Positions 18,689 through 62,462 are shown, counted from the first letter of the stretch. The stretch is 64,000 nucleotides of DNA from Phycisphaerae bacterium (GCA_029260075.1 JAJDDY010000027.1:126086-190085), one strand, 5' to 3'. Numbers and translations: made by a program. Notes: generated by a model from the sequence alone, not told the origin.

Positions 18689-18800
18689 GTCACGACCCAA
18701 GTAACGGGTTCGTCCGATCCGAGCCGCGACCGTGAGGGATCGATTTCAAACTGTCACGACCAGATATCGACCGTCCGCTCCGTTCCGGGCGCGGCTCGGT
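18689..18800. repeat. Family-A nested palindromic intergenic repeat, copy 1 (degenerate right arm)
   Basis: CCGAGCCGCGACCGTGAGGGA...GGGCGCGGCTCGG inverted arms inside GTCACGACC.. outer arms. Confidence 0.8.
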
Positions 18801-18907
18801 AGGTCAGTCGGTCGATGTGTGACAAAGCACAAGTGTGGCACTGGCTACCCGCCGAAATATGTTTCGGTTGGCCGCCCATAACCAACCTGCTCAACGAGGT
18901 AACCTAG

Positions 18908-19858
18908 ATGGACATGACCGTAAGCAAGACCAAGACCAACTCGGTGGGCGACGACACGCCGTTCGTGCATACGACGAAGCTCGACACGCTTTGGTTCCAA
19001 GTCGGCGGGACGCTCTGCAACCTCCGTTGTCACCACTGTTTCATCAGTTGCTCGCCGGAGAACGACAAGTTCGGTTTCCTATCGCTGGAAACGTGCGAAC
19101 AAAACCTGCGCGAGTCCGTACCGCTCGGCGTCAAGGAATTCTACTTCACAGGCGGTGAACCATTCGCCAATCCGGAAATGTGCGACATTCTCGAGAAGGC
19201 ACTCGAATATGGTGCGGCCACCGTCTTGACCAACGCGACAATTCTGCGCGACAAGACGCTCGACCGACTCGAAGCCATGAACGAAGGCTCGACGCACTCG
19301 CTGGAACTCCGCGTCAGTCTCGATGGCTACACGGCGGAAATGAACGACCCCATCCGTGGCGACGGCACGTTCGACAAAGCCATGGAAGGCGTGCGCGAGC
19401 TTGTGAAACGTGGGTTCTCTCCCATCCTAACGATTACGCGAACTTGGTCCGGCGATGACAACGTAGTATTGGCTGGCTTTCGACAGATGCTCGGAGGCAT
19501 CGGATACGAAGAGCCCCGACTGAAAATCCTACCGGTCTTGAAAATGGGCGCCGAGGTCGAGAGGACCGAAGGCTACGGCGAAGAAGCCCGCCTGACGACA
19601 GCCATGATGGCGGAGTACGATCAGAGTCAGCTCGTCTGCAGCAGCGCGCGACTGGTTACCGACAAGGGCATCTGGGTCTGCCCGATTCTGCTCGACGCCC
19701 CGGACGCACGGGTGAGTGACACACTTTCGCAAGCCATCGGCGACTTCCCGCTAAACCACCAAGCCTGCTACACCTGCTGGCAATTCGGCGCCATCTGCTC
19801 CAACGCATCGACCGGCGCGGCAGGCATAACCAAGAACAATTGCTGCGGCAAGGGCTAG
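18908..19858 (+). CDS. Radical SAM domain protein with a Cys-rich C-terminal (SPASM/twitch-like) region
   Basis: CNLRCHHC (CX3CX2C) radical-SAM cluster motif near the N-terminus. GGEP motif. Additional C-terminal cysteines (CYTCWQFGAIC). Confidence 0.8.
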   Translation: MDMTVSKTKTNSVGDDTPFVHTTKLDTLWFQVGGTLCNLRCHHCFISCSPENDKFGFLSLETCEQNLRESVPLGVKEFYFTGGEPFANPEMCDILEKALEYGAATVLTNATILRDKTLDRLEAMNEGSTHSLELRVSLDGYTAEMNDPIRGDGTFDKAMEGVRELVKRGFSPILTITRTWSGDDNVVLAGFRQMLGGIGYEEPRLKILPVLKMGAEVERTEGYGEEARLTTAMMAEYDQSQLVCSSARLVTDKGIWVCPILLDAPDARVSDTLSQAIGDFPLNHQACYTCWQFGAICSNASTGAAGITKNNCCGKG

Positions 19859-19872
19859 CTAGCACACATCGA

Positions 19873-19982
19873 GTGACGGGTTTACCGAGCCGCAACCGTG
19901 ACGGAACGAACGTTTGACGCCGGCTGTGACAGCTTGAAGACGCTCCCTTACGGTCGCGGCGCGGTTCGGACGAACCCGTCAC
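19873..19982. repeat. Family-A repeat, copy 2
   Basis: GTGACGGGTTTACCGAGCCGC..ACGGTCGCGGCGCGGTTCGGACGAACCCGTCAC. Confidence 0.85.
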
Positions 19983-20096
19983 TTGAGGCGTGGCCATGCA
20001 CTGGGAACCAGCCCGGCGTCGTACCCATGGACACTGCAAGATCGGCTCCTAGGTCGCGATCTATGCTGTCGTAGTGATCGGTTTCTAGACTTCGCG

Positions 20097-21053
20097 TTAG
20101 GGAGTCACGTGTGACGCGTCGCCCCCAGCGTTAAACACATATACGCGATCGAGTTCATCTGCGGCCACCGAACTACTGACCCCCAGCGACACCAAGAGCG
20201 GATTGTTCCGGTCCGGGTTGATTGAGGTGATTTCGCCGATGGTTAGCGCGGCGGGGAGGTCTGTGCTGTCTGGGTCGGAGAGCACCACGTCACCCACCGC
20301 GAGGCGGCCCGAATCGGTGTCGCGACGATCCACGTCGACGATGAGCATCACGCCGTCACCCGAACCGGTAAGCCAATAGCGATCGGTCACATTGTCGGCG
20401 GCAACCTCAAACACACCGTCGGTAAATCGACCGATCCGCACCTTCATCTGTACCGCCGGGTCGCTAAGCAATTTGATGCGTGACGTATGCGTGCCCACGC
20501 GATCGACCACGCCGACCAAAGTCTCTCGAAGCAGGATGGCCATACCCCCCTGCACACCCGCCGCTTCACCCTTGTCGATCCAGAAGCAACTCGACGTCAC
20601 CGCTGCACCGCGACGAACGCCCTGGAGACGACCGGAGTTGATCAGGCGTGACGATCGCCAAGGGAGTAGATCGTCCGCGACCACACCGGCAGGAATCAGC
20701 GTACCGCCGGCACCAAGTCGATAGCCATCCACTTCCCAAAGACGTGTGGCGGTTAGCAGGTCGACCTCGCGCTCGAGCTCGTGGCCGCGAACGGACAGGC
20801 TCGCAATTTGGTGCTGAAGGGCCTGATTTTCTCGAACGACTTGTTGATAGGCTTCCGCAGAAACAGAATCGCCGGAGGCCGCCACCGCTGCGGTTTCGGC
20901 TCGAAGGACATGTTGAAACGGCACGATTACCTGCACAAGACTGATCAACCGACCGGTCCACGCGGCAGGCGCAAAGATTGCCCCGCACGTGAGTGCGGCC
21001 AGCATGATGAGGTAGCTTCTGCGGGCGACGAAACGTCGTGTCGCTTTTCGCAT
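20097..21053 (-). CDS. mreC: Rod shape-determining protein MreC
   Basis: N-terminal TM, coiled coil and beta domains. Immediately downstream of mreB. Confidence 0.85.
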   Translation of the reverse strand: MRKATRRFVARRSYLIMLAALTCGAIFAPAAWTGRLISLVQVIVPFQHVLRAETAAVAASGDSVSAEAYQQVVRENQALQHQIASLSVRGHELEREVDLLTATRLWEVDGYRLGAGGTLIPAGVVADDLLPWRSSRLINSGRLQGVRRGAAVTSSCFWIDKGEAAGVQGGMAILLRETLVGVVDRVGTHTSRIKLLSDPAVQMKVRIGRFTDGVFEVAADNVTDRYWLTGSGDGVMLIVDVDRRDTDSGRLAVGDVVLSDPDSTDLPAALTIGEITSINPDRNNPLLVSLGVSSSVAADELDRVYVFNAGGDASHVTP

Positions 21054-21091
21054 AGTGGGTTCGATCGGTTACCAGGTGTGCGCAGAGCGGG

Positions 21092-22144
21092 TCAATACTC
21101 GTCTACGTCGGATTCCATCGTATCTTTCCACGCCGCAAGGTTGTCGAGGTACACACTTGTACCGCGCGCCACGCAGCTTAGTGGATCGTCCACAAGATTG
21201 ACGAGAAGCCCCGTGCCCTCCGAAAGCTTCTGGTCCAACCCCCTCAACAGCGCCCCACCTCCGGCGAGATGAATTCCATTCTCGACAAGGTCAGCCGCCA
21301 ACTCGGGCTCGGCGTTTTCCAGTGTCTGCATGACACACTCGATGATCTGCTGAACCGGCTCGGTGAGGGCCTCGCGAATCTCCTCGGACGTGACCGTAGC
21401 CTTATGCGGAAGCCCGCCAACCACGTCGCGGCCACGAACCTCCTTCTCCATTTCCTGATCAAGCGCGACGATTGATCCGATCTCGATCTTGATTCGCTCC
21501 GCAGTCTGCAACCCGATCATCAAGTCGTACTTGCGTCGAACATAGGAAATGATCGCAGCGTCCATCTCGTCGCCAGCCACACGAATGCTCTGCACGACGG
21601 CAATATCGGCGAGCGACATGATGGCCACCTCCGTGGTCCCGCCACCGATGTCCACGATCATCGACGCCGTCGCCTCGCCAATGGGGAGACCGGCGCCGAT
21701 ACCTGCGGCCATCGGCTCCTCGACCAGATAGACCCGGCGCGAACCGGCGCGTTCGGCGGAGTTGTACACCGCTCGTTTTTCGACGGCGGTGATGCCCGAG
21801 GGCACGGCGATGACGACGCGCGGTTTTACGAACCGACTGCGCCCGTGAACTTTGCGAATGAAGTAGCCGAGCATGGCCTCGGTAATGTCGAAGTCGGCGA
21901 TGACCCCGTCCTTCAACGGCCGGATGGCGCTGATGGACCCGGGCGTTCGCCCCAACATCTCCTTGGCGACTTGACCGACAGCGTTGCCATTTCTGAGCAC
22001 TTGATTCGTGCCCCGGCGGACCGCGACGACCGACGGCTCGTTGAGCACGACACCCTCACCCTTGACGCACACCAAGGTGTTGCACGTACCGAGGTCAATG
22101 CCCATGTCGACACTGAACATGCCAAGTAGCGAGTCGAAAATCAT
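21092..22144 (-). CDS. mreB: Rod shape-determining protein MreB (actin homologue)
   Basis: Start trimmed to MIFDSLLGMFSVDMGIDLGT, which aligns with the E. coli MreB N-terminus. DIGGGTTE and GGGALL actin-fold motifs. Confidence 0.92.
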   Translation of the reverse strand: MIFDSLLGMFSVDMGIDLGTCNTLVCVKGEGVVLNEPSVVAVRRGTNQVLRNGNAVGQVAKEMLGRTPGSISAIRPLKDGVIADFDITEAMLGYFIRKVHGRSRFVKPRVVIAVPSGITAVEKRAVYNSAERAGSRRVYLVEEPMAAGIGAGLPIGEATASMIVDIGGGTTEVAIMSLADIAVVQSIRVAGDEMDAAIISYVRRKYDLMIGLQTAERIKIEIGSIVALDQEMEKEVRGRDVVGGLPHKATVTSEEIREALTEPVQQIIECVMQTLENAEPELAADLVENGIHLAGGGALLRGLDQKLSEGTGLLVNLVDDPLSCVARGTSVYLDNLAAWKDTMESDVDEY

Positions 22145-23607: not shown

Positions 23608-23955
23608 GGCAACAACTCCCGACCTAACGGTCCCATGAATCCAAAATCAGACGCCCGTGGGCAACCCTCGCACCCACGAGAAACCGGTCCAACAACGACG
23701 CCAAAGGGCAAAACGCGGTACCGATCAGCCGCCAGCGGGCTGTGGTTTCAGCTCATTGCGGCGATCCCATGGGTACGTCAGGCGCACGCGATCCTCAATC
23801 GCCCAAGGCGATGTTCCGACAATCTATAGCCCACGGATGCGACTGTTGCAAGTCCCGGCGGAAGAATCCTGCGAATTGACCACGCGAAATCGGCCAAGGA
23901 TGGCTGCGTATCGCCATGAAGATTCGTCCGTAGCTAATGCGCTGCCGCGCCTCAA

Positions 23956-24066
23956 GTGACGGGTTTACCGAGCCGCGACCGTGAGGAAGAAGGCGTTTGA
24001 ACGCCGGTGGCGACAGCTTGAAAGCGCTCCCTCACGGTCGCGGCTCGGTTCGGACGAACCCGTCAC
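23956..24066. repeat. Family-A repeat, copy 3 (most complete: outer CCTCAAGTGACGGG arms + inner CCGAGCCGCGACCGTGAGG arms)
   Basis: Near-perfect nested inverted repeat. Confidence 0.9.
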
Positions 24067-24259
24067 TTGAGGCGTGGCGGCGCATTAGTGACGAAAACGT
24101 CCGTAACGCCGAGCAAGACCTGGCCGCTCGGTCGCAAACCAGGATCCAAAACATCTGCCGCGCCGGGGGTTGCTTCAAATTCTTCCGGATGTACAATGCG
24201 GGGCTTCCGTGACGGCACGGGAGACGGCAAGCAGAAAACCAAGCGTAGGCGAGACAACA

Positions 24260-25100: not shown

Positions 25101-25129
25101 GGATCACCGGCTGGAAGCCGGTGCCACAC
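25101..25129. repeat. Family-B repeat, copy 2 (reverse orientation)
   Basis: GGATCACCGGCTGGAAGCCGGTGCCACAC. Confidence 0.75.
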
Positions 25130-25243
25130 GGGAGAGACCACACAACAGGACAAACAAAATGGACCCACAAGAGGGGACACACGAGAGTGTGAGGCCCGCG
25201 TACTTACCTGCCTAGTGCGATGTCAACATCGAAGACGGCGTTA

Positions 25244-25353
25244 CCGAGCCGCACCCGTTAGGAAGCGGACGCTTGAGAGTCGGTCGCGACGACGTGAAAA
25301 CACTCCCCCACGGTCGCGGCTCGGTTCGGACAAACGCGTCAGTTGAGTCGTGA
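25244..25353. repeat. Family-A repeat, copy 4
   Basis: TTACCGAGCCGCACCCGTTAGGAAGCG...CACGGTCGCGGCTCGGTTCGGACAAACGCGTCA. Confidence 0.8.
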
Positions 25354-25360
25354 CCAACCT

Positions 25361-26608
25361 CTATTGAGAATGCGATCGTCGTAGGGGCATGGTCATGCAG
25401 CGTGGTCCGCCGAGGCCGCGTACGAGTTCGGAATCGTCGATGCCGATGCATTTGACGCCGTTTTCGCGGAGGGCTTCGGTGGTGTACTCATTCCGCTCGT
25501 AGGTCACAACCACGCTCGGTGCGATCGCCAGGGCGTTCGAGGCATCCATGCGTTGCTCACGTGCGGCGAACGGTTTGAGGCCACCGGCGGTGTCGACGAC
25601 CGTCACGTCACATTCGAATTCGTCGCGCAGAATATCGAGAAAAGACCGGTCTTCCGCGACGCGCTGGGTCCGTTTGGGATCATCCGTGACCGGCTCGTAG
25701 CGGTGGATGTTGGGGACGTTTTCCATCACGTCGCCGAACCACAATATCTTCCCGCGATCGATCACGGTGAACACCGTATCGAGGTGCATGAACGCCCGGT
25801 CGGCTGGGATGGGGATTTCGTAGACGCGCTTGACCTGACTGAAGTCGAAACAATTCCCAGCCAACCGCTCGATCGTCTCGCTTCGCGTCCGCTCGCTGCA
25901 GCCGACCAGCACGACCTCAGGTGACAAGATGATGACATCGCCGCCCTCAATCGTGTACGGTCGGTCCTCGGTCGGTTCTTCCGACCCGCCGTAAGTGATG
26001 GCGTTGCCGCGAAAGATCGGATGGTGCTCCAGCACCGCGCGCATGAGCAACGTTTCGCGAACCCGCTCACGATAGTGCATTTTCGACGAGACGGCCGTGT
26101 CGCGAACCACGACGGCCGGATCGCGCGTGAAATAGGCGTTGGGCACCGGCGGAAGGAGGAAGCTGCCGCTGCTACCGTCTCCGTCCGCGCCAGAGGAGAT
26201 GCGATGGCCGGTAAGATGCGTGTACTCCGATGCAGTCAGACCGGCGAGCAACACGGTCACCAGCTCCGGCACGGTCCAGTGCTTCAGCCCGACCAGATCG
26301 TCCACGATCGCCGGCATAGCCGCGACCTGACATACCTGATCGATCAACGACCGACGGACCGTCTCGTCGGCAAGTACTTCGCCGAGCAAGTGATCAAGAA
26401 GAAGCACTTCGACACCGTTCGATCGGAGGACGCCTACGAACGCATCGTGCTCCTCCTGCATGCGCCGAAGGTAGGGAATATCCTCAAAAAGGAAGCCCTT
26501 CATGTTCTCGTGCGTAAGCCGATCGATCTCCGGTCCGGGTCGATGCACCATCACGGCTTCGAGCTTGTCGTATTCGTTGTCAATCTGTACCCGCACAGGA
26601 AACCCCAC
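25361..26608 (-). CDS. arcA: Arginine deiminase
   Basis: Amidinotransferase-superfamily motifs (FMHLDTVFT, catalytic Cys in GGPRCMTMPL). GTG start. Confidence 0.78.
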   Translation of the reverse strand: MGFPVRVQIDNEYDKLEAVMVHRPGPEIDRLTHENMKGFLFEDIPYLRRMQEEHDAFVGVLRSNGVEVLLLDHLLGEVLADETVRRSLIDQVCQVAAMPAIVDDLVGLKHWTVPELVTVLLAGLTASEYTHLTGHRISSGADGDGSSGSFLLPPVPNAYFTRDPAVVVRDTAVSSKMHYRERVRETLLMRAVLEHHPIFRGNAITYGGSEEPTEDRPYTIEGGDVIILSPEVVLVGCSERTRSETIERLAGNCFDFSQVKRVYEIPIPADRAFMHLDTVFTVIDRGKILWFGDVMENVPNIHRYEPVTDDPKRTQRVAEDRSFLDILRDEFECDVTVVDTAGGLKPFAAREQRMDASNALAIAPSVVVTYERNEYTTEALRENGVKCIGIDDSELVRGLGGPRCMTMPLRRSHSQ

Positions 26609-26795: not shown

Positions 26796-26858
26796 GGTGC
26801 GAGAAAGGATTCACGCACCAGCAGCAGCAACGTGGGTGCGAGAAGGGATTCACGCACC
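26796..26858. repeat. Family-C ~24-bp palindrome (GGTGCGAGAAAGGATTCACGCACC), two tandem copies
   Basis: GGTGCGAGAAAGGATTCACGCACC..(15 nt)..GGTGCGAGAAGGGATTCACGCACC. Confidence 0.75.
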
Positions 26859-33000: not shown

Positions 33001-33055
33001 TGCCGTGAATCCATTCTCGGCACCTGCCAAGGAGCGAGAAAGGATTCATGCTCCA
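33001..33055. repeat. Family-C-like repeat pair in inverted orientation
   Basis: GTGAATCCATTCTCGGCACC ... GAGCGAGAAAGGATTCATGCTCC. Confidence 0.55.
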
Positions 33056-34888: not shown

Positions 34889-34984
34889 GGTGTCAGTTCC
34901 CGTTACTTGCCTACGAGGTCAAACCAACGAAGTGCCGCGTCTACGTCCCTCAGTCGCCCAAAGCGCGTCCAAGATGCATCTTTC

Positions 34985-35053
34985 CGAGCCGCGACCGTGA
35001 CGGAGCGGTCGGGGATCGTGGGCGAAGACCGCTCCCTTACGGTCGCGGCTCGG
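34985..35053. repeat. Family-A repeat, copy 5 (core only; 3' of pspC-like gene)
   Basis: CCGAGCCGCGACCGTGACGGAGCGGTCGGGGATCGTGGGCGAAGACCGCTCCCTTACGGTCGCGGCTCGG. Confidence 0.85.
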
Positions 35054-35115
35054 TTTGTCATCACGCTCATTAAACACGCTCTAAGTCCCTTCGTCTCTTC
35101 TTCCCTACGTCTCTT

Positions 35116-35322
35116 CTAATAATACTCCCGCTCAGGGATCAACAGCCACAGGATGATGTAGATGAGGATTCCCGGAAACGCCGCGGAAAAAATCGACGCC
35201 AAGACATAGACGACCCGCACAACGGTCGGATCGATCCCGGCGTATTCTCCGAGACCGCCGCACACACCGGCGACGTTCCGATCAATAACGCTTCTTCGTA
35301 ATGGTTGAGAGAGATTTCCCAT
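35116..35322 (-). CDS. PspC-domain small membrane protein
   Basis: RRSVIDRNVAGVCGGLGEYAGIDPTVVRVVYV + TM is a canonical PspC domain. Start trimmed; the track ORF N-terminus is translation of a repeat element. Confidence 0.7.
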   Translation of the reverse strand: MGNLSQPLRRSVIDRNVAGVCGGLGEYAGIDPTVVRVVYVLASIFSAAFPGILIYIILWLLIPEREYY

Positions 35323-35375
35323 CGCTACATCCGCTTCGCCTGTTTTTCCTAAGGGCGTGTTCGAGACGCCATTTG

Positions 35376-35445
35376 CCGAGCCGCGCCCGTAAGGAAGCTG
35401 TCGGAGATCGTGGGCGAAGACCGCTCCCTTACGATCGCGGCTCCG
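35376..35445. repeat. Family-A repeat, copy 6 (core; 5' of pspC-like gene; spacer nearly identical to copy 5)
   Basis: CCGAGCCGCGCCCGTAAGGAAGCTGTCGGAGATCGTGGGCGAAGACCGCTCCCTTACGATCGCGGCTCCG. Confidence 0.85.
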
Positions 35446-35545
35446 TTCGACGAAACCCTTCATAGGCACCCTCTAAGTCTTGAGCCTGCCGTCGGTCGGG
35501 TTCATTGATCGCACTATGTCTTTGATCTACGCATTGACGAATCCA

Positions 35546-39500: not shown

Positions 39501-39885
39501 GAATTCGCCATCCTTACGCAAGAGATCGTTCGCAATCGAGAAGCGACGTGCGAACCTACCGATACCCTACCGCGCCCCACGTCGCACGGCGATTACAAAG
39601 ACCGACTCCCTCTATAATTCGCGTTTTGCGCCGGTTTATCCGCGTAGGAGCGGCGGACAACCCCCAGACGCGTGGTCGGGGCAACTGGATCCGGGGGGCG
39701 CGCCGCGACGCTGTCGCTACACACAGGAATCCCAAACGGCGCAGCCATGGCACGCCAAGACTGGCCGACGACAAGGTATCGCATGAGTGCTAACTCACGA
39801 GCAGGCGGGTCACCAACGAAGCCCAGTATCGCACAAGAATCTCGTACGCTTCGCGCAACAACCTAGTGCTCTGGCACAGCTAGAA

Positions 39886-40005
39886 TGACGGGATTACCGA
39901 GCCGCGACTGTGAGTGAGCGAATGTTTGAAAACCAATCGTGACGGCTCGCAAGCGCTCCCTCACGGTCGCGGATCGGATCGAACGAACCGGTCACGTCAG
40001 TCGTG
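39886..40005. repeat. Family-A repeat, copy 7
   Basis: TGACGGGATTACCGAGCCGCGACTGTGAGTGAGCG...CGCTCCCTCACGGTCGCGGATCGGATCGAACGAACCGGTCAC. Confidence 0.85.
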
Positions 40006-40013
40006 ACGAAGCA

Positions 40014-43270: not shown

Positions 43271-43392
43271 CCTCTACAATGCGACGTTGAAGCACCGGCT
43301 GTGAGAATCGTCCGGAGGGCGCGGCGTGGTCGAAGCGGTGACAATAATGCGGACGGCCAGCTCTGCCTAGTGCGCTGTCAGACATCGAATGG

Positions 43393-43498
43393 AGGGTTTA
43401 CCGAGCCGCGCCCGTAAGGAAGCGGATGATGGAAATCCGCCCGTAACGACCTAAAATCGCTCCCTTACGGTCGCGGCTCGGATCGGACGAAACCGTCA
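43393..43498. repeat. Family-A repeat, copy 8
   Basis: GGGTTTACCGAGCCGCGCCCGTAAGGAAGCG...CGCTCCCTTACGGTCGCGGCTCGGATCGGACGAAACCGTCA. Confidence 0.85.
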
Positions 43499-43517
43499 TT
43501 TGAATCGTGACATAGCA

Positions 43518-44465
43518 CTAAGCTGTGGTCCGATAGTCGATAAAGTCTTGCGTGAGCTGGCGTGTGATCGGCCCCGGGGCGCCGTCGCCGACATCGCGCC
43601 CGTCGATTCTTGTAATAGGGACAATTTCCGCCGCCGTACCCGTACCGAAACACTCGTCCGCGACGCACAAGTCGTGTCGAATCAGAACGACTTCGTGTAC
43701 GGCGATCCCGCGATTGCGAGCCAACTCCATGACGAGGTTGCGCGTGATCCCCTCAAGGATTCCCATGGACGTCGGCGGGGTGTGCAGCTCTCCGTCGCGA
43801 ACCAGAAAAATGTTGTCGCCGGTGCATTCGCTCACATAACCGTCGACGGTAAGCATGATGGCTTCGTCGGCGCCCAGATCACGAGCCTCAGCTTTGGCCA
43901 ACACGTTGTTTAGATAGTTGAGCGATTTCACTCGTGGACTGGTCGTGTTCGGATGATTTCGTGAAAAGCTCGATATGATGCAGCGCAGGCCGCGTTCGTA
44001 GACTTCCGGCGGATACAATGCGATCTTGTCAGCGATTACGAAGACGGAAGGACAGGCTGTTTTCTCGATGGAAATACCCAGCGAACCCACGCCACGCGTA
44101 ACCACAAGGCGAACATAGCCGTCCTCGGTGATGCCGTTGGCGCCCATGGCCTCGCGCATGGCTGTACTGAGTTCCTCGTGGGTCATGGGAATCGTTAGGC
44201 GGATAGCCTTGGCGCTCTCGAAGAGGCGATCGAGATGCTCAGATTCGCGAAAAATGCGACCGCCGTAGATGCGAATGCCCTCGAAAATCCCGTCACCGTA
44301 GAGCAAGCCATGATCGAAAACGCTGATGCTTGCTTCGCCAGCCGGAACCAACTCACCATCGAGCCAAATCTTCAGATCCGCTCGGGGTGTGAACGGATTG
44401 GCCGGACGCGGTTGAGAAAACGCATCCGCGCTGGAAGCCTGTGGGTCTACCGATGCATTGTTCAT
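43518..44465 (-). CDS. ilvE: Branched-chain amino acid aminotransferase
   Basis: Fold-type IV PLP enzyme motifs (VFDHGLLYGDGIFEG, ECTG). Confidence 0.85.
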   Translation of the reverse strand: MNNASVDPQASSADAFSQPRPANPFTPRADLKIWLDGELVPAGEASISVFDHGLLYGDGIFEGIRIYGGRIFRESEHLDRLFESAKAIRLTIPMTHEELSTAMREAMGANGITEDGYVRLVVTRGVGSLGISIEKTACPSVFVIADKIALYPPEVYERGLRCIISSFSRNHPNTTSPRVKSLNYLNNVLAKAEARDLGADEAIMLTVDGYVSECTGDNIFLVRDGELHTPPTSMGILEGITRNLVMELARNRGIAVHEVVLIRHDLCVADECFGTGTAAEIVPITRIDGRDVGDGAPGPITRQLTQDFIDYRTTA

Positions 44466-45214
44466 AAAGGCACCTCCCTTCGTCCAATCCGAGACGGCGT
44501 AGCCAGTTCGTCGGTCTCCTCCGACTTGCGCAAAACGCCATCGACCAGATGCACGCGACGGTGTGCATGATCCGCCACAGCCGAATCGTGCGTGACCATG
44601 ATAAGCGTCTGACCGCCTTGATTCAGTCCGGCGAGAAGACCAAGTATCCCCCCGCCAATCTTGGCATCCAGGTTACCCGTTGGCTCGTCCGCGAGCAAGA
44701 TGGCCGGGCGATTGATCAGGGCGCGTGCGATCGCTACACGCTGACGCTCGCCGCCGGAAAGCTCGTTGCAGCGGTGCGTAATCCGCTCTGCGAGGCCCAC
44801 ACGTTCGATTATCGATTCCGCCTCGCCCCGCACAGTCGAACGAACGCGCCGCCAACCCAGAAACGAATGCCGAACCATCTGCGGCATCAGCACATTCTCC
44901 AGCACGTTGCATTCCGGGAGCAGATGGTAGAACTGAAAAACGAACCCGATCTGTACGTTCCTGTAGGCGCGTCGCTCTGCCTCGCGAGCGGCCAACAAAT
45001 CGCCACCATCGAATTCGATTCGGCCCCGATCGGGAATGTCCAGCATCCCGAGCAAGTGCAGCAGCGTGCTCTTGCCCGATCCGCTCGCGCCGCGGATGAC
45101 CACGAACTCCCCACGGTCCACCGTAAAGGATACACCACGCAGTACGCTCACGAGCGAGCGACCCATTCGGTACGACTTGTGCAATCCGGTGGTTTTCAGC
45201 ATGGCCTTACTCAT
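44462..45214 (-). CDS. lolD: Lipoprotein-releasing system ATP-binding protein LolD-like
   Basis: Walker A GASGSGKST, LSGGERQR, LLADEPTGNLD. Start trimmed to MSKAMLKTTGLHKSY. Confidence 0.85.
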   Translation of the reverse strand: MSKAMLKTTGLHKSYRMGRSLVSVLRGVSFTVDRGEFVVIRGASGSGKSTLLHLLGMLDIPDRGRIEFDGGDLLAAREAERRAYRNVQIGFVFQFYHLLPECNVLENVLMPQMVRHSFLGWRRVRSTVRGEAESIIERVGLAERITHRCNELSGGERQRVAIARALINRPAILLADEPTGNLDAKIGGGILGLLAGLNQGGQTLIMVTHDSAVADHAHRRVHLVDGVLRKSEETDELATPSRIGRREVPL

Positions 45215-46799
45215 AGCGAAGCGCCGCCACAGGCCACACCCGGGCCGCAATCCTTGCCGGAATGAGCGATCCGATCATCGATGCGACGATAGCTACGACG
45301 CCCACACCGATCGCGTCAACGGTCTTGACCGCGTTGGGGATTTTGTCGAACGAATAGATCTCCGGACTCCAGACGCGCAGTTGCGGGCTCATGCTGGCCA
45401 ATAAATCTTGTATCTCGTTGATGTGCCACACGACCTCAGACCCGAGAAGAACGCCGAGTACCGATCCGACCAATCCGACCACCGTCGCGTACAGAATGAA
45501 CAACCCCGCGACACCCTGACTCGATGCACCGATCGACTTGAGTATGCCGATGTCGCGCGTTTTTTTCTCGACGATCATGTAGAAAATGCAACCGACCAAG
45601 ACGATCGCCACCATGCTGATCAACCCGAACAAGAACGTAACCAACACCTTCTCTTTTTCGACGGCGGCGATGAAGGAACGCTGGAGATCCTCCCATGTGT
45701 ACGCCTTCGCAAGACGAAGATTCGTTGCATCAACCCTGCTCACGGTCGGCACCTTGCTCATCGTGAACCGTTCCCACGCCTCGGAAATCTGGTCGCGGGC
45801 GATGTTGATATCTACGCCCTTCTTCAAGCCCACGAGCAACTGATTCGTTCGAGCGCTGGTCATCCCGCCGTCCACGGCCGGTTGCGGCGACATGGCAAGT
45901 CGGTCTTGCAAAATGTCGAAGTCGACGTAGGTCTGCAGGCTATCGATCTCGAAAATACCGGTACGCGAGTCGTCCACGTATCGTAGAACCATCTTGATCG
46001 GCGGTTCCCCGAACGGATTGCCCATCGGCGTCAGCGGCATCAACGTGAGCGCCACGGGTGCGCCGCGGGCGAGGTAGCGGTTGAAGTTCCCATCCGGGCG
46101 TCGCTCGTTGAGCAGATCACAACCGACGATGACGCCGGGAAGATCGGGACCGGAAAAACGTGGCTCACCCATGTCGGCCGCAAACACCCGTTCGCCCACC
46201 TCCATGGAGACCAAGCGATCGACCGGCGCCGGCAGGAACGGATCGGCATCGAACGCCGCCACTGCCTCTTGATCCTTCTCCGCCGCTCGCCAACGTGCGT
46301 TGGCCCTCGCTAGTGACTCCGGTAACTTGAACCGACCGGTGGCCGGGTCCGTACCCACTACGGACAAACCCTGCAAACCCAAGCTCGTCGTACCGGGAAA
46401 ATATCGTTCGTAGTGCAAACCCGCGCGGAAGCTGTTGACTTTGACGTATTCGTCCAGACGTACGCCGACCACGCGCGTCGGTTTCGTCCACGTCGTGCGC
46501 GGTTCACGAAAAATGCCGTACGAATAGATCGCCGGTGTTGTCCGCTCGACCATATCGGGAAGCTCGACTTTGAGTAGCTCGCCGAACTCGTCGTAGAAGG
46601 GAAAGCCCTGGAGTGTTCCGCCTTCGAGAATGATTTCGCTGTGCAATCCGCGGGCCCGCTCGCGAACCGTATCAAGGAATCCGCCCATTACGCTCAGCAC
46701 AACCAGCACCATGGCGCTACACAGCATGACACTGGCCACGCCGAGCCACGCAATCAACTTCGTGCGCAGGTAGCGAGCGGCAAGGAACCATTTGTACAT
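45207..46799 (-). CDS. lolE: LolC/LolE-type (FtsX-like) ABC permease with enlarged periplasmic domain
   Basis: N-terminal TM, large periplasmic loop, C-terminal 3 TM FtsX domain. Pairs with lolD. Confidence 0.8.
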   Translation of the reverse strand: MYKWFLAARYLRTKLIAWLGVASVMLCSAMVLVVLSVMGGFLDTVRERARGLHSEIILEGGTLQGFPFYDEFGELLKVELPDMVERTTPAIYSYGIFREPRTTWTKPTRVVGVRLDEYVKVNSFRAGLHYERYFPGTTSLGLQGLSVVGTDPATGRFKLPESLARANARWRAAEKDQEAVAAFDADPFLPAPVDRLVSMEVGERVFAADMGEPRFSGPDLPGVIVGCDLLNERRPDGNFNRYLARGAPVALTLMPLTPMGNPFGEPPIKMVLRYVDDSRTGIFEIDSLQTYVDFDILQDRLAMSPQPAVDGGMTSARTNQLLVGLKKGVDINIARDQISEAWERFTMSKVPTVSRVDATNLRLAKAYTWEDLQRSFIAAVEKEKVLVTFLFGLISMVAIVLVGCIFYMIVEKKTRDIGILKSIGASSQGVAGLFILYATVVGLVGSVLGVLLGSEVVWHINEIQDLLASMSPQLRVWSPEIYSFDKIPNAVKTVDAIGVGVVAIVASMIGSLIPARIAARVWPVAALRYE

Positions 46800-46802
46800 G
46801 CG

Positions 46803-48467
46803 TTAGCCATCCGTGGCGGCTGTCGACCGCTGCAAGGGAAACAAGATCACGTCGCGTATGCTGGCGCTGTCCGTCAACACCATCACAAGTCGGTCGATGC
46901 CCACGCCCAGTCCGCCAGCCGGAGGCATGCCATATTCCAGCGCGGTCAGGAAGTCGTCGTCCATAACCGCCATGGTCTCGTCACCTTCGCCCGCCACCTG
47001 TCGCTTGAAGTTGGCGCTCTGCTCTTCGGGATCGTTGAGTTCGGTATAGGCGTTGCCCAATTCCATCCCTGCGACGAACGCTTCGAAACGCAGTGCCACG
47101 GATGGGTCATCGGGGTGGCGGCGCGTCAGCGGGCAGATGGCTGCGGGGTAATCATAGACGAACGTCGGTTGAATCAACTGCCGCTCGACGGTTGCTTCAA
47201 ACAGGGTGTTGACCACGACGGCGTGGTCCTTGCCGCCGGTCTCAATGCCCAACTCCTTCGCTTTCGCCAACACCGCCGCTTCATCGCCCATGGCGACACC
47301 AGCGTATTCGAGCAGTAAGTCGGCGTATTTTCGTCGTGACCAAGGCGGTGTGACATCGAGCACCGTGCCGTTGAACACGACCATGCGCCGACCGGCCACA
47401 ACACCCTCGCGTGCCGTTTGGTACGCCGCTAGATGCTCCGCCTCTGCGTACGCCGAGGCCGCGGCTTCGTCTTGGTCCGTGCCGATCCGCTCTTTCTCGC
47501 GTTCCAACAACTCCGTGCGATCGGGCAACGCCTTCAGCGTCGACACATCGTACGCGGCCGCCACCATCTGCTCGACGCGTTCCATCATCACGTTGTAGTC
47601 AGCGTAGGCTTCGTACAACTCGACCATTGTGAATTCGGGGTTGTGCTTTGTGCTGATTCCCTCATTGCGGAAGTTGCGGCTGATCTCGAATACGCGTTCC
47701 ATCCCACCGACCAAGAGCCGCTTAAGATAAAGCTCGGGACTGATGCGCATGTACAGCTTCATGTCCAGTGTGTTGTGGTGCGTGGTGAACGGACGGGCGG
47801 CGGCGCCGCCGTAGATCGGCTGAAGCACCGGCGTGTCGACTTCGTAGTAGCCCTCGCCGACCAATGAGGCGCGGATGGCGCCGATGATCGCGCTGCGCTG
47901 CTGAAACACAGCCAACACTTCGGGGTTACTAAACAAATCGACGTAGCGTCGGCGATAGCGAAGGTCTACGTCGGTCAGGCCATGCCATTTTTCCGGCGGC
48001 GGACGGACGGCTTTGCTCAACACCGTCAGCCGGTCTACCCAAACAGTAAGCTCGCCGGTCCGGGTTTTCCCGAGCACGCCTTCGGCGCCGACGATGTCAC
48101 CCAAGTCAAGTTGCTTGAGCACCGGCCACGAATCGCCGAGGTCCGCCCTACTAAGGCCAAGCTGAATCTTACCCGAGCGATCGCGAATCGTGACGAAGGC
48201 GAGCTTGCCCATCAGTCGCAACAAGGCAATCCGCCCAGCTACGCGCGCTCGGTGTTCCGTGCGTTTGCCCGGTTCGAACTCGACGGCCTTGACGGCTTCG
48301 CGCACGTCGGCGACAGCCTGAACGTTTTCGAAACGCTGCCCGTACGGCTCGACACCAAGCTCGCGAAGTGTGTCGCGCTTGCGGCGTCGCTGCTCGACTT
48401 GATCGACGGCTGGTTGCCCCGCGCCCTTGCCCTCGCAAACTGGCGTATCGTTTTTCTGTTTGGTCAT
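46803..48467 (-). CDS. lysS: Lysine--tRNA ligase (class II)
   Basis: OB-fold anticodon-binding N-terminus and class II motifs (FRNEG, GGxGxGxDR-like GLGVGIDRL). Confidence 0.9.
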   Translation of the reverse strand: MTKQKNDTPVCEGKGAGQPAVDQVEQRRRKRDTLRELGVEPYGQRFENVQAVADVREAVKAVEFEPGKRTEHRARVAGRIALLRLMGKLAFVTIRDRSGKIQLGLSRADLGDSWPVLKQLDLGDIVGAEGVLGKTRTGELTVWVDRLTVLSKAVRPPPEKWHGLTDVDLRYRRRYVDLFSNPEVLAVFQQRSAIIGAIRASLVGEGYYEVDTPVLQPIYGGAAARPFTTHHNTLDMKLYMRISPELYLKRLLVGGMERVFEISRNFRNEGISTKHNPEFTMVELYEAYADYNVMMERVEQMVAAAYDVSTLKALPDRTELLEREKERIGTDQDEAAASAYAEAEHLAAYQTAREGVVAGRRMVVFNGTVLDVTPPWSRRKYADLLLEYAGVAMGDEAAVLAKAKELGIETGGKDHAVVVNTLFEATVERQLIQPTFVYDYPAAICPLTRRHPDDPSVALRFEAFVAGMELGNAYTELNDPEEQSANFKRQVAGEGDETMAVMDDDFLTALEYGMPPAGGLGVGIDRLVMVLTDSASIRDVILFPLQRSTAATDG

Positions 48468-48632: not shown

Positions 48633-48675
48633 AGTTTGGCACCGGCTTCCAGCCGGTGATCCATTAGCGCTTTCC
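48633..48675. repeat. Family-B repeat, copy 3
   Basis: AGTTTGGCACCGGCTTCCAGCCGGTGATCCATTAGCGCTTTCC. Confidence 0.8.
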
Positions 48676-50628: not shown

Positions 50629-50717
50629 CGTATCGAAAACATCACCGGTTGGCGATAACGCAAGAGCACGCGCGATCGTCGTGCGTGAAACATAACCCGC
50701 GCGCGGCAGAATCGGTT

Positions 50718-50815
50718 TGCGACGAACCGAGCCGCGCCCGTGAGGAAGCGGTGTTCACGCGCGAGCCCGGATCGCTTCCACCCGGGCGCGGCTCGGCAAG
50801 AGGCTTTTCGCACAA
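50718..50815. repeat. Family-A repeat, copy 9 (subfamily A2; ~90% identical over ~100 bp to copy 11)
   Basis: GCGACGAACCGAGCCGCGCCCGTGAGGAAGCGGTGTTCACGCGCGAGCCCGGATCGCTTCCACCCGGGCGCGGCTCGGCAAGAGGCTTTTCGCAC. Confidence 0.85.
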
Positions 50816-50865
50816 GTTCCTGTCGGGTGGCGCATGTCGGTCGGATGGCCCATAGCTTCAGCCGT

Positions 50866-50990: not shown

Positions 50991-51022
50991 TGTGGCACCG
51001 GCTTCCAGCCGGTGATCCATCG
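50991..51022. repeat. Family-B repeat, copy 4
   Basis: TGTGGCACCGGCTTCCAGCCGGTGATCCATCG. Confidence 0.8.
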
Positions 51023-53513: not shown

Positions 53514-53546
53514 TGGATCACCGGGCGGAAGCCGGTGCCACACCTT
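53514..53546. repeat. Family-B repeat, copy 5 (reverse orientation)
   Basis: ATGGATCACCGGGCGGAAGCCGGTGCCACACC. Confidence 0.75.
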
Positions 53547-53705
53547 TTCAGCAGGCTACGATCTCGGCATTCTCGATTGAATTGCGTAGCTCGCCCGGAT
53601 ACTATCGCGATTCGGTGCGAAACGCGAGGGCCACTGAATTACCGGTGGTAGTCGGCCGCGGCCAGTTGAAGAGCTAGGAGAGTGATTAAGAAGGGGTGCG
53701 TCGAA

Positions 53706-53777
53706 CCGAGCCGCGACTGTCGTCAGGGACCGGTTTTCGCACCTGCGACCGGACCGCTTCCTTGCGGGCGCAGCTCT
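53706..53777. repeat. Family-A repeat, copy 10 (degenerate)
   Basis: CCGAGCCGCGACTGTCGTCAGGGACCGG...CGCTTCCTTGCGGGCGCAGCTC. Confidence 0.6.
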
Positions 53778-53807
53778 CAAAGAAGCCTTTGCATCACGTT
53801 CAAAGAG

Positions 53808-57296: not shown

Positions 57297-57345
57297 CACG
57301 AGCGTGTCTCTGGAAACGTGCGTGAAAAGATGCATCATAGGCGTT

Positions 57346-57445
57346 GCGACGAACCGAGCCGCGACCGTGAGGAAGTGGTTTTCACGCGCGAGCCCGGATC
57401 GCTTCCTTACGGGCGCGGCTCGGTAAGAGGCTTATCGCACACGTT
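57346..57445. repeat. Family-A repeat, copy 11 (subfamily A2)
   Basis: GCGACGAACCGAGCCGCGACCGTGAGGAAGTGGTTTTCACGCGCGAGCCCGGATCGCTTCCTTACGGGCGCGGCTCGGTAAGAGGCTTATCGCAC. Confidence 0.85.
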
Positions 57446-57493
57446 CTAACAAACTGAAATTGTCCCATTGACGGGGCGGGGATTGCCGAGCGT

Positions 57494-58774: not shown

Positions 58775-58796
58775 TGAAGAAGCGTGTTTAGGGGGG

Positions 58797-58868
58797 ACTC
58801 GAGTCGCGCCCGTAAGGAAGCGGTCCGGTTTCGCGGGCGAACACCACTCCCTTACGGTCGCGGCTCGG
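58797..58868. repeat. Family-A repeat, copy 12 (left arm variant TCGAGTCGCG)
   Basis: GACTCGAGTCGCGCCCGTAAGGAAGCGGTCCGG...CACTCCCTTACGGTCGCGGCTCGG. Confidence 0.75.
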
Positions 58869-58988
58869 TTTGTCACAACCTTTCTTGTACACCCTTTTGG
58901 CGATTTTCGCTCTCTACAGATACGCGACGCAAATTCGCGGCCGGATTCGTTGAGACGTGACTAGACACCAGTCTTGTCTAACAGGCTG

Positions 58989-59837: not shown

Positions 59838-59890
59838 GTGCCCGAAACTCCGTAACTCAACGACACGTCATCTAGCGCAGTCTGCTGAAC

Positions 59891-59934
59891 AAGTGTGGCA
59901 CCGGCTTCCAGCCGGTGATCCATTAGCGACTTCC
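59891..59934. repeat. Family-B repeat, copy 7
   Basis: AAGTGTGGCACCGGCTTCCAGCCGGTGATCCATTAGCGACTTCC. Confidence 0.85.
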
Positions 59935-60813
59935 GCCTCTTGACGGGGCAAGTCGCATCCTCACTTGCGCGGCTGGTGCGTGAATCCTTTCTCGCACCGA
60001 ACCGACCGATTCTACGTTTAACGCCAACTCTGCAATCAACTCGACGATCCGAACATCTGTACCGATCGCAGCGTCGCACACGACGCGGCGACAGTCGACC
60101 CAACCAGCGAACGGCGGCTTCGAAAACTCGAGTCCGACCGGCTGGTTCGACCCAACTGATGGATCGAAGCCAACTCGTTGGTCCGTGCCCGTCAGACCCA
60201 GTGCACGCGGAATGTCATGCGTTGCGTGTGGACCGTTGGTCATTAGAAACGGAACGACAATCAGGTCAACCCGTGCCGTTCGGGATCGCAGGCTGTCGAC
60301 ATTGGGCTCCTCATCCAGAAATGTCGGCAGAACCTCGCGGGCGACGTGAGCCGCACGTAGGGCGTCGGCTAGGCGAATGGTGGCGAATCGACTCCGGCCG
60401 TGTCGCGGCGTGCCATGCCCCACGATTGACACACATACACGATCTAGCTGACACCTCGAGCGCAGGGTGTCGATTCGGTCAGCGACGAGTTTCACGACTG
60501 CGGGATGTAAGCCAACGGGCTTGGTTTGTCGGAGTCGAATGCGCGACGCACGCTTGTTTCTGGACAGCCCACGCGGCAGCAGTTCGTTCGTGAAGTAGCC
60601 GTCGCTCGTCATCATCGGCACAACCGTCACATCATCTGCCGACAAGCGGTCGAGCACTTCGGAAAAACACGGTTCGCCGTCGTGGAATGCGGGCGTGACT
60701 TCGTCGAACCATCCGCGCTCGGCCAATCGATGTGCGTAATCGGCCACCATCTGGTTGGCGCCGGGAGTCCGACGTGAGCCGTGCGCTGCGATAATCAATG
60801 CCGATCCGCTCAT
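59923..60813 (-). CDS. cbiX: Two-domain CbiX/SirB-type sirohydrochlorin chelatase
   Basis: Duplicated CbiX halves (IIAAHGSRR... and IVGHGTPRHGRS...). Start trimmed to MSGSALIIAAHG. The C-terminal end of the ORF runs into repeat elements. Confidence 0.72.
   Translation of the reverse strand: MSGSALIIAAHGSRRTPGANQMVADYAHRLAERGWFDEVTPAFHDGEPCFSEVLDRLSADDVTVVPMMTSDGYFTNELLPRGLSRNKRASRIRLRQTKPVGLHPAVVKLVADRIDTLRSRCQLDRVCVSIVGHGTPRHGRSRFATIRLADALRAAHVAREVLPTFLDEEPNVDSLRSRTARVDLIVVPFLMTNGPHATHDIPRALGLTGTDQRVGFDPSVGSNQPVGLEFSKPPFAGWVDCRRVVCDAAIGTDVRIVELIAELALNVESVGSVRERIHAPAAQVRMRLAPSRGGSR
59975..59998. repeat. Family-C repeat (adjacent to family-B copy 7)
   Basis: GGTGCGTGAATCCTTTCTCGCACC. Confidence 0.8.
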
Positions 60814-60893
60814 TAGGAAATCGTTCAAGTGCGGTAGACCGAGAACACGCTGCCGTAAACGGAACGCATCCTCAGATGATGCGGAAGAAGACC

Positions 60894-60926
60894 AATGCAT
60901 CACCGGCTGGAAGCTGGTGCCACACT
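60894..60926. repeat. Family-B repeat, copy 8 (reverse orientation)
   Basis: AATGCATCACCGGCTGGAAGCTGGTGCCACACT. Confidence 0.75.
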
Positions 60927-61001
60927 CGTTCAACAGCCGCCAGCCGCCTGCGCGCGAATTCGCTCTCGCACCTTCACGCAGACGCACATACGATGCCCGC
61001 T

Positions 61002-61025
61002 GGTGCGCGAATCCTTTCTCGCACC
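61002..61025. repeat. Family-C repeat (between family-B copy 8 and family-A copy 13)
   Basis: GGTGCGCGAATCCTTTCTCGCACC. Confidence 0.8.
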
Positions 61026-61045
61026 TCCCAGAGGGCCGTTACGAA

Positions 61046-61105
61046 CCGAGCCGCGACCGTAAGGGAGCGGTCGTTCGCCTCGCACATGAACCGCTTCCTA
61101 ACGGA
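61046..61105. repeat. Family-A repeat, copy 13 (short spacer)
   Basis: CCGAGCCGCGACCGTAAGGGAGCGGTCGTTCGCC...CCGCTTCCTAACGGACGCGGCTCGG. Confidence 0.8.
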
Positions 61106-61138
61106 CGCGGCTCGGAAAGACCCATTCTGGACACGCTC

Positions 61139-61984
61139 TCAAATACCATCGCCGCCATGTAGACCGCATTCGGTCTTACCCGACTCGATCCACCGACCAT
61201 CGCGCGAGTAGTCGCCCGGCTTCGATCCCAGTACAGGCGCGGTGCAATGCGTGCAACCGACAGTGGGATAGCCCTGTTCGTGCAACTTGTTGTAGGGCAC
61301 GTCGTTCGCCTGGACGTAATCCCAAACATCGGTGCGTTCCCACTTGAACAGCGGGCTCACCTTGAGCACTTCGTACCGCCAATCCCATTCGACGAGGTTC
61401 AAACCAGCGCGACTGGGCGACTGACTCCGGCGAAGACCCGTGACCCACACGTCGACATCGCGCATGACCACCGCCATCGGATCGACCTTGCGCAGTTTAC
61501 AACACAAGTCCGGATTGGTCTTCCATAGTTCGCCGCCGTGAATTTCAGCCTGCTGTTCCGGCGTCATGGTCGTACCGCGATTGACGAAGTCGACGTGCGG
61601 ATAGCGCTCGACAAGACGATCTCGCAATTCGTGGGTTTCGGGGAAGAAGAACATGGTGTCGAGGTAAACCACGGTGACGGGCACGTCAAGCCGGGCGTAC
61701 ATGTCGATGAGCGCACACCCTTCCATGCCGAACGACGTCGTCATCATCCAGCGCTGTCTGGCGAAGCGTTCCAGCGTCCAGGCAATAACCCGGTCGGTTG
61801 GTGTGTGTTCCGTGATCGGTTCGCCAGAACCGGACGGATTCATATACGTTTCCACGGCACAATTCTCCGCTAGTGCATCACCAACCCAAAGCTCGCGGGT
61901 CTCGTTCGTTCTTTCAGAGCCGCCACCGCAAGGAAGCGAATCACACGGACCCGCACGTTCAAGAGTGGCCATGCACCAGTCCAT
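61139..61984 (-). CDS. cysH: Adenylylsulfate/phosphoadenylylsulfate reductase (thioredoxin-dependent, with C-terminal CC...CxxC Fe-S motif)
   Basis: PAPS-reductase fold motifs (MTTSFGMEG, CC...KTECGLH). Start uncertain (ATG at 61984, 61972 or 61843). Track M1 is a TTG inside a terminator T-tract. Confidence 0.75.
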   Translation of the reverse strand: MDWCMATLERAGPCDSLPCGGGSERTNETRELWVGDALAENCAVETYMNPSGSGEPITEHTPTDRVIAWTLERFARQRWMMTTSFGMEGCALIDMYARLDVPVTVVYLDTMFFFPETHELRDRLVERYPHVDFVNRGTTMTPEQQAEIHGGELWKTNPDLCCKLRKVDPMAVVMRDVDVWVTGLRRSQSPSRAGLNLVEWDWRYEVLKVSPLFKWERTDVWDYVQANDVPYNKLHEQGYPTVGCTHCTAPVLGSKPGDYSRDGRWIESGKTECGLHGGDGI

Positions 61985-62024
61985 CGACCCGCCTGCGACC
62001 CGCCGCGTAACGTCCAACAAAAAG

Positions 62025-62070
62025 GCCCGCGGGTTTCGTTCCCGCGGGCCTTTGTGTTGTCATTCAGAAG
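62025..62070. terminator. Bidirectional intrinsic-terminator-like hairpin (A-tract, GGCCCGCGGG-loop-CCCGCGGGCC, T-tract)
   Basis: 10-bp GC stem flanked by AAAAA and TTTGTGTTG. Located in the cysH 5' region, between divergent genes. Confidence 0.5.
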
Positions 62071-62405
62071 TTCTGAACTACGTCACGTTCCCGTCAGGAC
62101 GCTCCTCCCGCAAGAGGCCTTACAACAGCAACAACAACACGCGCACGAGCACACCGCCAGAGGCCAAGCGGCTCTGGGGCTGCAAGGAAACCCTCGCAGT
62201 GAATCAACCAAGTGATCGTCGCGGTTCTCTACCATAGTTGGCTAATGATACGACTTTCGTGCATCCAAGTCAATGTCTCGGCGCGCCGCAGAGACACTCC
62301 ATCGCACGTTGGCAACACAAGTGACGCTCCACTTAGGCCGATAAACCGCCACCGGACCGCGTTCGGTTTCGGTCTTCGGGCGTGTTTGGGAAGGGTTGGC
62401 TCAAA

Positions 62406-62462
62406 CCGAGCCGCGACGGTTTTCGCACGCGAAAGCGGACCGCTTCCTTTCAGGCGCGGCTC
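62406..62462. repeat. Family-A repeat, copy 14 (degenerate)
   Basis: CCGAGCCGCGACGGTTTTCGCACGCGAAAGCGGACCGCTTCCTTTCAGGCGCGGCTC. Confidence 0.65.

Follow-up and report, generated by a model that had tools for sequence, protein, structure and literature searches.

To our knowledge, class 3 HUH-Y1 systems have been described in a single paper and have never been studied experimentally. In that paper, Quentin et al. 2018 (BMC Genomics 19:475, PMC6006769) described a small group of HUH-Y1 proteins, 'class 3', that occurs chiefly in Planctomycetes, Acidobacteria, and Proteobacteria and whose TnpA-Y1 genes are flanked by an "atypical secondary structure with 5' CnGA foot". Their Table S1 lists CCGAGCCGCGACCGTAAGGGAGCGGA with the fold .....((((..((....))..)))) for Legionella pneumophila, CAGAGCCGCGACCGTTAGGGAGCG and related forms for Solibacter usitatus, and a diverged variant for Planctomyces limnophilus. 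The subject of this work is family A, a high-copy palindromic repeat in a 64,000-nt stretch of a Phycisphaerae bacterium genome (GCA_029260075.1, JAJDDY010000027.1:126086-190085), referred to below as the window. The consensus family A arm is the Table S1 entry CCGAGCCGCGACCGTAAGGGAGCGGA letter for letter, and the fold derived here independently agrees with the published one.

Judged by its sequence, family A is a family of the repetitive extragenic palindromic (REP) or REP doublet forming hairpin (REPIN) type that is identical to the hairpin published beside class 3 genes, present here in a new host. Its foot carries CnGA with a variable n, and it is dispersed in high copy over 15 independent intergenic sites in 44 kb. 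New findings are the host lineage, the organisation into doublets and composite units with two arm types, and the covariation evidence for how the arm folds. Also new are a broader host range, which includes Chloroflexota and further low-GC Gammaproteobacteria, and the occurrence of arms on phage contigs and in frame within genes. Searching the full-text literature for the arm as a sequence string returned chance matches only.

The arm as the conserved unit

Each arm is 25 nt long and consists of a foot (CCGAG) and an imperfect hairpin (CCGC, GA, CC, loop GTNA, GG, GA, GCGG). The fold contains four base pairs, a 2x2 internal loop (GA/GA), two further base pairs, and a tetraloop. The variable positions are foot position 2 and the third loop base, the latter being the only freely variable base of the 25-mer. 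Among 164 unbiased arms, foot position 2 is C in 112, A in 22, T in 16, and G in 14, with positions 1, 3, and 4 conserved. This variation fits the published 'CnGA'. A/T bases fill the two positions immediately 5' of the foot in 75.5% of arms, compared with 15.9% in the background.

Support for the fold comes from covariation in 150 distinct arms drawn from many genomes, none of them matching, and hence fixed by, the search patterns. Paired cells make up 85.8% in these arms compared with 78.4% in shuffles, and slid partners reach at most 55%. Two-sided changes occur in 49 cells, against 12.8 +/- 2.9 in shuffles, and none of 500 shuffles scored as high. The pair 12:19 is C-G in 96 of the 150 arms and G-C in 30. 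The change from C12:G19 to G12:C19 characterises a second arm type, CCGAGCCGCGCGCGTNAGCAAGCGG, which is found in several phyla.

The usual doublet consists of one 'A' arm (GACC...GGGA) and one 'B' arm (GCCC...GGAA) in inverted orientation. The CCGAGCCGCGCGCGTNAGCAAGCGG arm leaves its own hairpin intact but places four mismatches in the A/B arm-to-arm duplex. As the small hairpin is kept and the inter-arm duplex disrupted, selection acts on the small hairpin. Nor can the long stem be the conserved feature, because about two thirds of arms in other genomes have no inverted partner within 300 nt. The functional and conserved unit is each arm's own foot plus hairpin, not the 24-bp inter-arm stem. 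The original prediction, made from the window sequence, had correctly recognised inverted arms but described a 24-bp stem around a variable 20–40-nt spacer. The doublet cores are in fact bimodal in length (70 nt or 80–81 nt), with spacers of 20–33 nt.

As a whole the elements form the stable extended hairpins that had been proposed. Full doublets fold at -27 to -31 kcal/mol with z about -6, and 148 nt of the composite element at 23968, folded as single-stranded DNA, reach -71 kcal/mol with z = -13.7. Stability of this order (-27 to -71 kcal/mol and z = -6 to -14 over the full elements) would also suit host-selected cis-acting hairpins, kept because their long transcribed form terminates or stabilises mRNAs or is bound by a host protein, with no transposase moving the copies. 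Against this explanation, the B-type arms weaken the long stem and keep the small hairpin.

Distribution in other genomes and phages

Scanning with CCGAGCCGCGNCCGTNAGG, at one genome per species, identified at least 115 stretches, and among the matches listed 110 of 115 contain the full 25-mer at <=3 mismatches. Hosts among these matches are Bryobacterales, Solibacteraceae, and other Acidobacteriota, many Planctomycetota, Chloroflexota, Binataceae, and a few other phyla. They also include the cultured Legionella waltersii and L. shakespearei and other Gammaproteobacteria of 38–48% G+C. The family is therefore widespread beyond the window, whereas rarity elsewhere was one of two outcomes that the original prediction had named as counting against it. 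Outside this genome, roughly a third of the arms are partnered within 60 nt and the remainder are single, and in Bryobacterales the solitary form is the most frequent one. A lone arm is unable to provide the long hairpin that a cis-acting role would need, and the near-identity of arms across phyla would require a shared sequence-specific factor.

The G+C-rich arm is conspicuous in low-GC loci of Legionella and other Gammaproteobacteria (38–48% G+C; L027, L034, L039, L081, L092, L114, L025, L058, L079, L091, L112), where it lies intergenically beside housekeeping genes. In L027 it occurs in an ABC-transporter/tRNA-synthetase region, and L039 and L114 carry it at a homologous position. Short tandem partial arms with a period of 15–19 nt lie upstream of complete arms in several loci (L006, L012, L035, L088, L111, L130, L160). 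These contain the first 12–17 nt of the arm alone (CCGAGCCGCGAC plus 3–7 nt of flank), and look as if events at the foot side had repeatedly been aborted or nested. L111 also holds an array of six A/B doublets.

Arms were found in 45 stretches of IMG/VR viral contigs. In at least nine related phage contigs (L134, L136, L138, L141, L145, L146, L150, L155, L158; e.g. L136 near 4286-4315), no more than a few bases separate the arm from the stop codon of a P22-type coat gene, and a scaffold-like gene is adjacent. This position directly after a coat gene is a typical spot for an RNA 3' hairpin and as such favours a cis-acting role. These phages could be vectors for family A. The plasmid and phage GenBank collections contained no arm match.

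Arms also occur in frame inside real genes (L015:441-465 and 1320-1344, L075:5331-5387, L221:4225-4246), a setting that does not suit cis-acting mRNA hairpins. They lie between the PP-binding domains of a polyketide-synthase-like protein, in a 4Fe-4S domain, and in an Eco57I-type methyltransferase domain, and encode the peptides SEPRPSGSG, PSRDRKGA, or RSLTVAAR.

Copies in the window

The family A 24-mer CCGAGCCGCGACCGTRAGGRAGCG has 25 matches at <=3 mismatches in the window and none in 100 shuffles, and 27 arms are found once <=6 mismatches are allowed. These arms occupy 15 sites between 18.7 and 62.5 kb (~44 kb), comprising 12 intact inverted doublets, two degenerate doublets, and one solitary arm. 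The high-copy inverted repeat proposed earlier is thus real, although its count of 14 copies in 45 kb needed this revision. The sites are as follows.

18719..18799 (unit ~18689-18830): type 1 doublet with an 81-nt core, reverse relative to the other type 1 copies, 109 nt upstream of a radical SAM gene
19885..19964 (unit 19859-20001): type 1 doublet between the convergent 3' ends of the radical SAM gene (stop at 19858, the unit edge) and mreC
23968..24048 (unit 23934-24089): type 1 doublet, the best-preserved composite palindrome
25244..25324 (unit 25210-25365): type 1 doublet, with the arginine deiminase stop (25361) inside the terminal YTAR of the unit
34984..35053 (unit 34963-35087): type 2 doublet with a 70-nt core, 3' of a pspC-like gene
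35376..35445 (unit 35355-35479): type 2 doublet, read as the false N-terminus of open reading frame (ORF) 35116-35469
39897..39977 (unit 39863-40018): type 1 doublet, with the stop of a GGDEF gene (40014) inside the terminal TTAG of the unit
43401..43481 (unit 43367-43522): type 1 doublet, left arm B-type and right arm A-type, with the aminotransferase stop (43518) in the terminal CTAA
50727..50796 (unit 50717-50819): type 3 doublet, 99 nt upstream of the aspartokinase start
53706..53778: degenerate type 3 doublet, left arm with a 3-nt insertion, between divergent gene starts and forming the false N-terminus of the ORF starting at 53682
57354..57423 (unit 57344-57446): type 3 doublet between the stop of a B12-binding-domain gene and the start of a GT4 gene
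58799..58868 (unit 58778-58902): type 2 doublet between convergent 3' ends
61046..61115 (unit 61036-61138): type 2 doublet in reverse orientation, its unit end abutting the stop codon of ORF 61139-62020
61915..61938 (+): solitary degenerate arm with four mismatches and no partner
62406..62464: degenerate type 3 doublet, left arm truncated

Alignment of the window copies reveals three palindromic unit types of ~100–156 nt that reach past the arms. The type 1 unit (~156 nt; 18719, 19885, 23968, 25244, 39897, 43401) carries the second, outer inverted repeat noted previously in all six copies. These are 68–76% alike, and the outer repeat is exact solely at 23968 and 19885. Type 2 (~125 nt) comprises the copies at 34984, 35376, 58799, and 61046. 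Type 3 (~103 nt) comprises 50727 and 57354 together with the degenerate 53706 and 62406. The near-identical pair reported earlier at 50718-50815 and 57346-57445 was recovered as the type 3 units 50717-50819 and 57344-57446, which share 91% identity over 103 nt between unrelated flanks.

The form of these units raises the question of a miniature inverted-repeat transposable element (MITE) moved by a DDE transposase, with 100–156-nt units bounded by terminal inverted repeats, IS5-like YTAR target duplications, and the arms as passengers. The units are indeed long palindromes ending CTAG/CTAA ... TTAG/CTAG, ends that look like the YTAR target of IS5-group elements. However, conservation among aligned type 1 copies peaks in the A arm (88% identity), followed by the B arm (78%), the outer repeat (69–77%), the spacer (64%), and the flanks (~28%), so that the unit ends are less conserved than the arms within them. 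YTAR is itself palindromic, making a direct duplication indistinguishable from an inverted repeat, and arms that lack these ends occur singly, in other unit types, and in other phyla. Clustering the ORFs of the 115 genome loci among the matches listed, and the ORFs within 400 nt of arms, returned only generic families and phage structural genes as recurrent neighbours and no transposase recurring beside the arms. A DDE-type MITE is therefore unlikely, with a slim chance of being correct.

Genomic context

The window is ordinary chromosome of ~60% G+C with negative GC skew throughout. Its nearest named EF-Tu relatives are Planctomycetota/Phycisphaerae metagenome-assembled genomes (MAGs) at 83–89% identity. 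All family A sites in the window are intergenic and their neighbours are unrelated housekeeping genes, including radical SAM, mreC/mreB, arginine deiminase, PspC, GGDEF, class IV aminotransferase, aspartokinase, TPR, B12-binding, and GT4 genes. As these neighbours differ and are unrelated, the sites are independent and do not belong to one duplicated segment, the second outcome named as adverse in the original prediction. No copy was found in positions 1-18600 of the window, which hold the rpoB, rplL, rplJ, rplA, rplK, nusG, secE, tRNA-Trp, tuf, and tRNA-Thr cluster and the next 9 kb. Downstream of 18.6 kb, by contrast, there is one copy per 3 kb.

Imperfect 70–80-nt palindromes at gene ends with conserved mismatches could in principle be integron attC sites or a CRISPR-like array. 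Both readings fail on anatomy and context. The elements lack RYYYAAC/GTTRRRY core sites, are irregularly spaced at 0.4 to 9.7 kb, and are flanked by housekeeping genes on both strands (e.g. mreB, aspartokinase). Just two tRNAs pass the Rfam gathering score in the window, and sensitive Rfam scans add only generic miRNA-precursor hairpins far below threshold. These readings have next to no chance of being correct.

Tabulating the neighbours confirmed that the elements lie at gene ends, the majority 3' of a gene, some 5', and two between divergent starts. In four type 1 units the neighbour's stop codon lies in or at the terminal CTAG/CTAA/TTAG (19858, 25361, 40014, 43518). Stop codons within or abutting unit ends occupy 19856-19858, 25361-25363, 40014-40016, 43518-43520, and 61139-61141, and ...GGCTCGG-TAA is the reading of many solitary arms in other genomes. 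Such rare A/T spots are either targets of the element, or the stop codon is part of what the element brings in.

Location mostly just 3' of genes, with several copies abutting or containing a stop codon, is also what host-selected cis-acting hairpins would show. The terminator role suggested originally finds no support, as none of the elements carries a T-tract. Terminator-like sites in the region are at chance level (20 vs. 19.9 +/- 4.9), with no family A element among them. Copies located 5' of genes or between divergent starts likewise fit poorly. Cis-acting hairpins selected by the host are thus a rather improbable explanation for family A.

The repeats also affect annotation and assembly. 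ORFs 35116-35469, 53682-, and 61139-62020 do have repeat-encoded false N-termini, as had been noted. This was not borne out for 59923-60987, placed in the same group, the start of which overlaps other repeat families. A Logan contig of the same genome from SRR15505518 (locus L161) corresponds to 43466-47465 of the window and encodes the identical aminotransferase. This short-read contig stops inside the element at 43401-43481, 52 nt beyond the aminotransferase stop codon, as expected for a multi-copy repeat that fragments short-read assembly. Gene calls in planctomycete and acidobacterial MAGs would improve if family A were masked, because it generates false Arg/Pro-rich N-termini and disrupts short-read assembly.

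Proposed mechanism

The anatomy of the elements, the fold within the arm, the independence of the sites, the conservation across phyla, and the identity with a published structure are all observed. Family A is probably a non-autonomous element, similar to REPs and bacterial interspersed mosaic elements (BIMEs), whose single-stranded DNA serves as substrate for a class 3 HUH-Y1 enzyme. The adjacency of such hairpins to the enzyme gene is taken from the literature on other genomes (PMC6006769). From this literature and the anatomy we infer that such an enzyme is present in this genome, that it acts catalytically on the elements, and that they are mobile.

In such a mechanism the arm would fold in single-stranded DNA during replication or repair, and its foot and hairpin would be read by a class 3 Y1 enzyme whose gene lies in another part of the genome. 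The enzyme may then cut and rejoin nearby, excising modules or whole doublets, copying them, or inserting them at A/T-rich spots, which at 60% G+C would mostly be stop codons and gene ends. Effects on mRNA ends, if any, would be secondary. The covariation of A and B arms directly predicts what the enzyme would read.

Y1 genes were sought by phmmer and jackhmmer with Escherichia coli RayT (a query that matched PDB 4er8 at 1.4e-118) and IS608 TnpA, and by regular expressions for class 3 motifs (NHVH ... YV[VI]xEQ). A metagenome scan with the L. pneumophila gene-flanking variant ACTGTGAG gave 64 loci, none with TnpA.

Several results weigh against the proposed mechanism. Motif and hidden Markov model searches found no class 3 gene and no other Y1 gene in the window. 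The 228 loci (1.7 Mb) collected likewise contained no class 3 gene, the sole Y1 match being a fragment of a class 2 REP-associated tyrosine transposase (RAYT). The single arm is no more stable than shuffled sequence (z = -1.2), so the arm fold rests on covariation. The covariation signal is in turn dominated by one pair (12:19) and the two arm types, in arms picked by similarity to a consensus that itself folds. Window copies are mostly 60–78% alike outside the arms and only one pair looks recent, so family A may be largely inactive in this genome. Three relatives with EF-Tu ~89–90% identical have no arms in 46 kb, yet these regions show no synteny with the window either; they offer no empty-site comparison and say nothing on mobility. 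The armless relatives hint at a lineage-specific expansion. The missing enzyme gene carries little weight, because a genome would hold one or a few such genes against hundreds of arms.

A Bryobacteraceae MAG is the source of the class 2 RAYT fragment (L004:7149-7436, minus strand; E = 1.8e-21 to E. coli RayT), and family A arms lie ~7 kb off. Several Y1 systems therefore coexist there, as reported for Solibacter.

A more tentative proposal, which we regard as possible but doubtful, is that the REP module and class 3 Y1 enzyme form a horizontally travelling system, unlike the classical REPIN-RAYT pairs, which are described as vertically inherited. If so, a near-invariant 25-nt hairpin would have spread across at least five phyla with genomes of ~38–73% G+C. 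It would be carried by phages after their coat genes, land at A/T dinucleotides such as stop codons, and be tolerated in frame in proteins. Such a system would be the living form of the intermediate that Quentin et al. proposed (PMC6006769), linking insertion sequences of the IS200 type to REP systems that have been domesticated.

Other repeat families in the window

Two further repeat families are present in the window. The second family, GTGG-CACCGGCT-TCC-AGCCGGTG(ATCC), has a GT[AG]G foot and an 8-bp hairpin and always occurs as singlets here (seven matches vs. 0 expected). It looks like a classical class 2 RAYT-type REP, and weaker copies lie near 18172 and 58743.

17297-17319 (+): second family
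25105-25127 (-): second family
48636-48658 (+): second family
50992-51014 (+): second family
53519-53541 (-): second family
59895-59917 (+): second family
60901-60923 (-): second family

The third family, GGTGCGAGAAAGGATTCACGCACC, has a 6-bp stem and a 12-nt loop (five matches vs. 0 expected), with two copies in tandem 39 nt apart.

26796-26819: third family
26835-26858: third family
33031-33054: third family
59975-59998 (-): third family
61002-61025 (-): third family

Comparison with known systems

The REP/BIME-type class assigned in the original prediction is borne out, and the evidence points likewise to the REP-associated, IS200-like tyrosine transposase that it suggested seeking. The arm is identical to a class 3 TnpA-Y1 hairpin, and as in BIMEs there are doublets, singlets, and two types of arm. 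Like the classical REP, BIME, and REPIN elements associated with class 2 RAYTs in E. coli and Pseudomonas, family A is a short imperfect hairpin with a 5' single-stranded foot, intergenic and in high copy. Its inverted A/B doublets resemble those of Y and Z REPs in classical BIMEs, which also occur alongside singlets. However, the family A foot is CnGA(G) rather than the GT[AG]G of classical REPs and the class 2 systems, and family A is therefore not a classical class 2 RAYT REP. Its hairpin contains a 2x2 internal loop, unlike the classical REP, and the associated enzyme class also differs. Classical REPs are lineage-specific, whereas family A is near-identical across phyla.

By analogy, the subterminal hairpins of IS200/IS605 elements (TnpA-IS200, class 1) are comparable, in that a foot and imperfect hairpin would be read as single-stranded DNA by an HUH-Y1 enzyme in both. 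The class 3 Y-motif is said to resemble that of class 1 (PMC6006769). Unlike IS200/IS605, family A arms are separated by 20–33-nt spacers with no transposase or TnpB between them, and the element is therefore non-autonomous.

In-frame arms inside real genes of other genomes (polyketide synthase linkers, a 4Fe-4S domain, a methyltransferase) recall Rickettsia palindromic elements (RPEs). RPEs bear no sequence relation to family A, and they differ in that the family A copies in the window are all intergenic.

The closest relatives remain the class 3 structures, with which family A shares the sequence CCGAGCCGCGACCGTAAGGGAGCGG and its fold, the CnGA foot, the high copy number, and the host phyla. 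A near-unchanged 25-nt hairpin from Legionella (~40% G+C) to Planctomycetota and Acidobacteriota (60–68% G+C) and phages is an unusually clean substrate, and could serve in tests of how REP systems disseminate and whether they remain selfish or have become domesticated. The published class 3 cases are single hairpins beside the enzyme gene in three genera (Legionella pneumophila, Solibacter usitatus, and Planctomyces limnophilus). Family A differs from them in forming A/B inverted doublets within three larger palindromic unit types, in a Phycisphaerae-like MAG.

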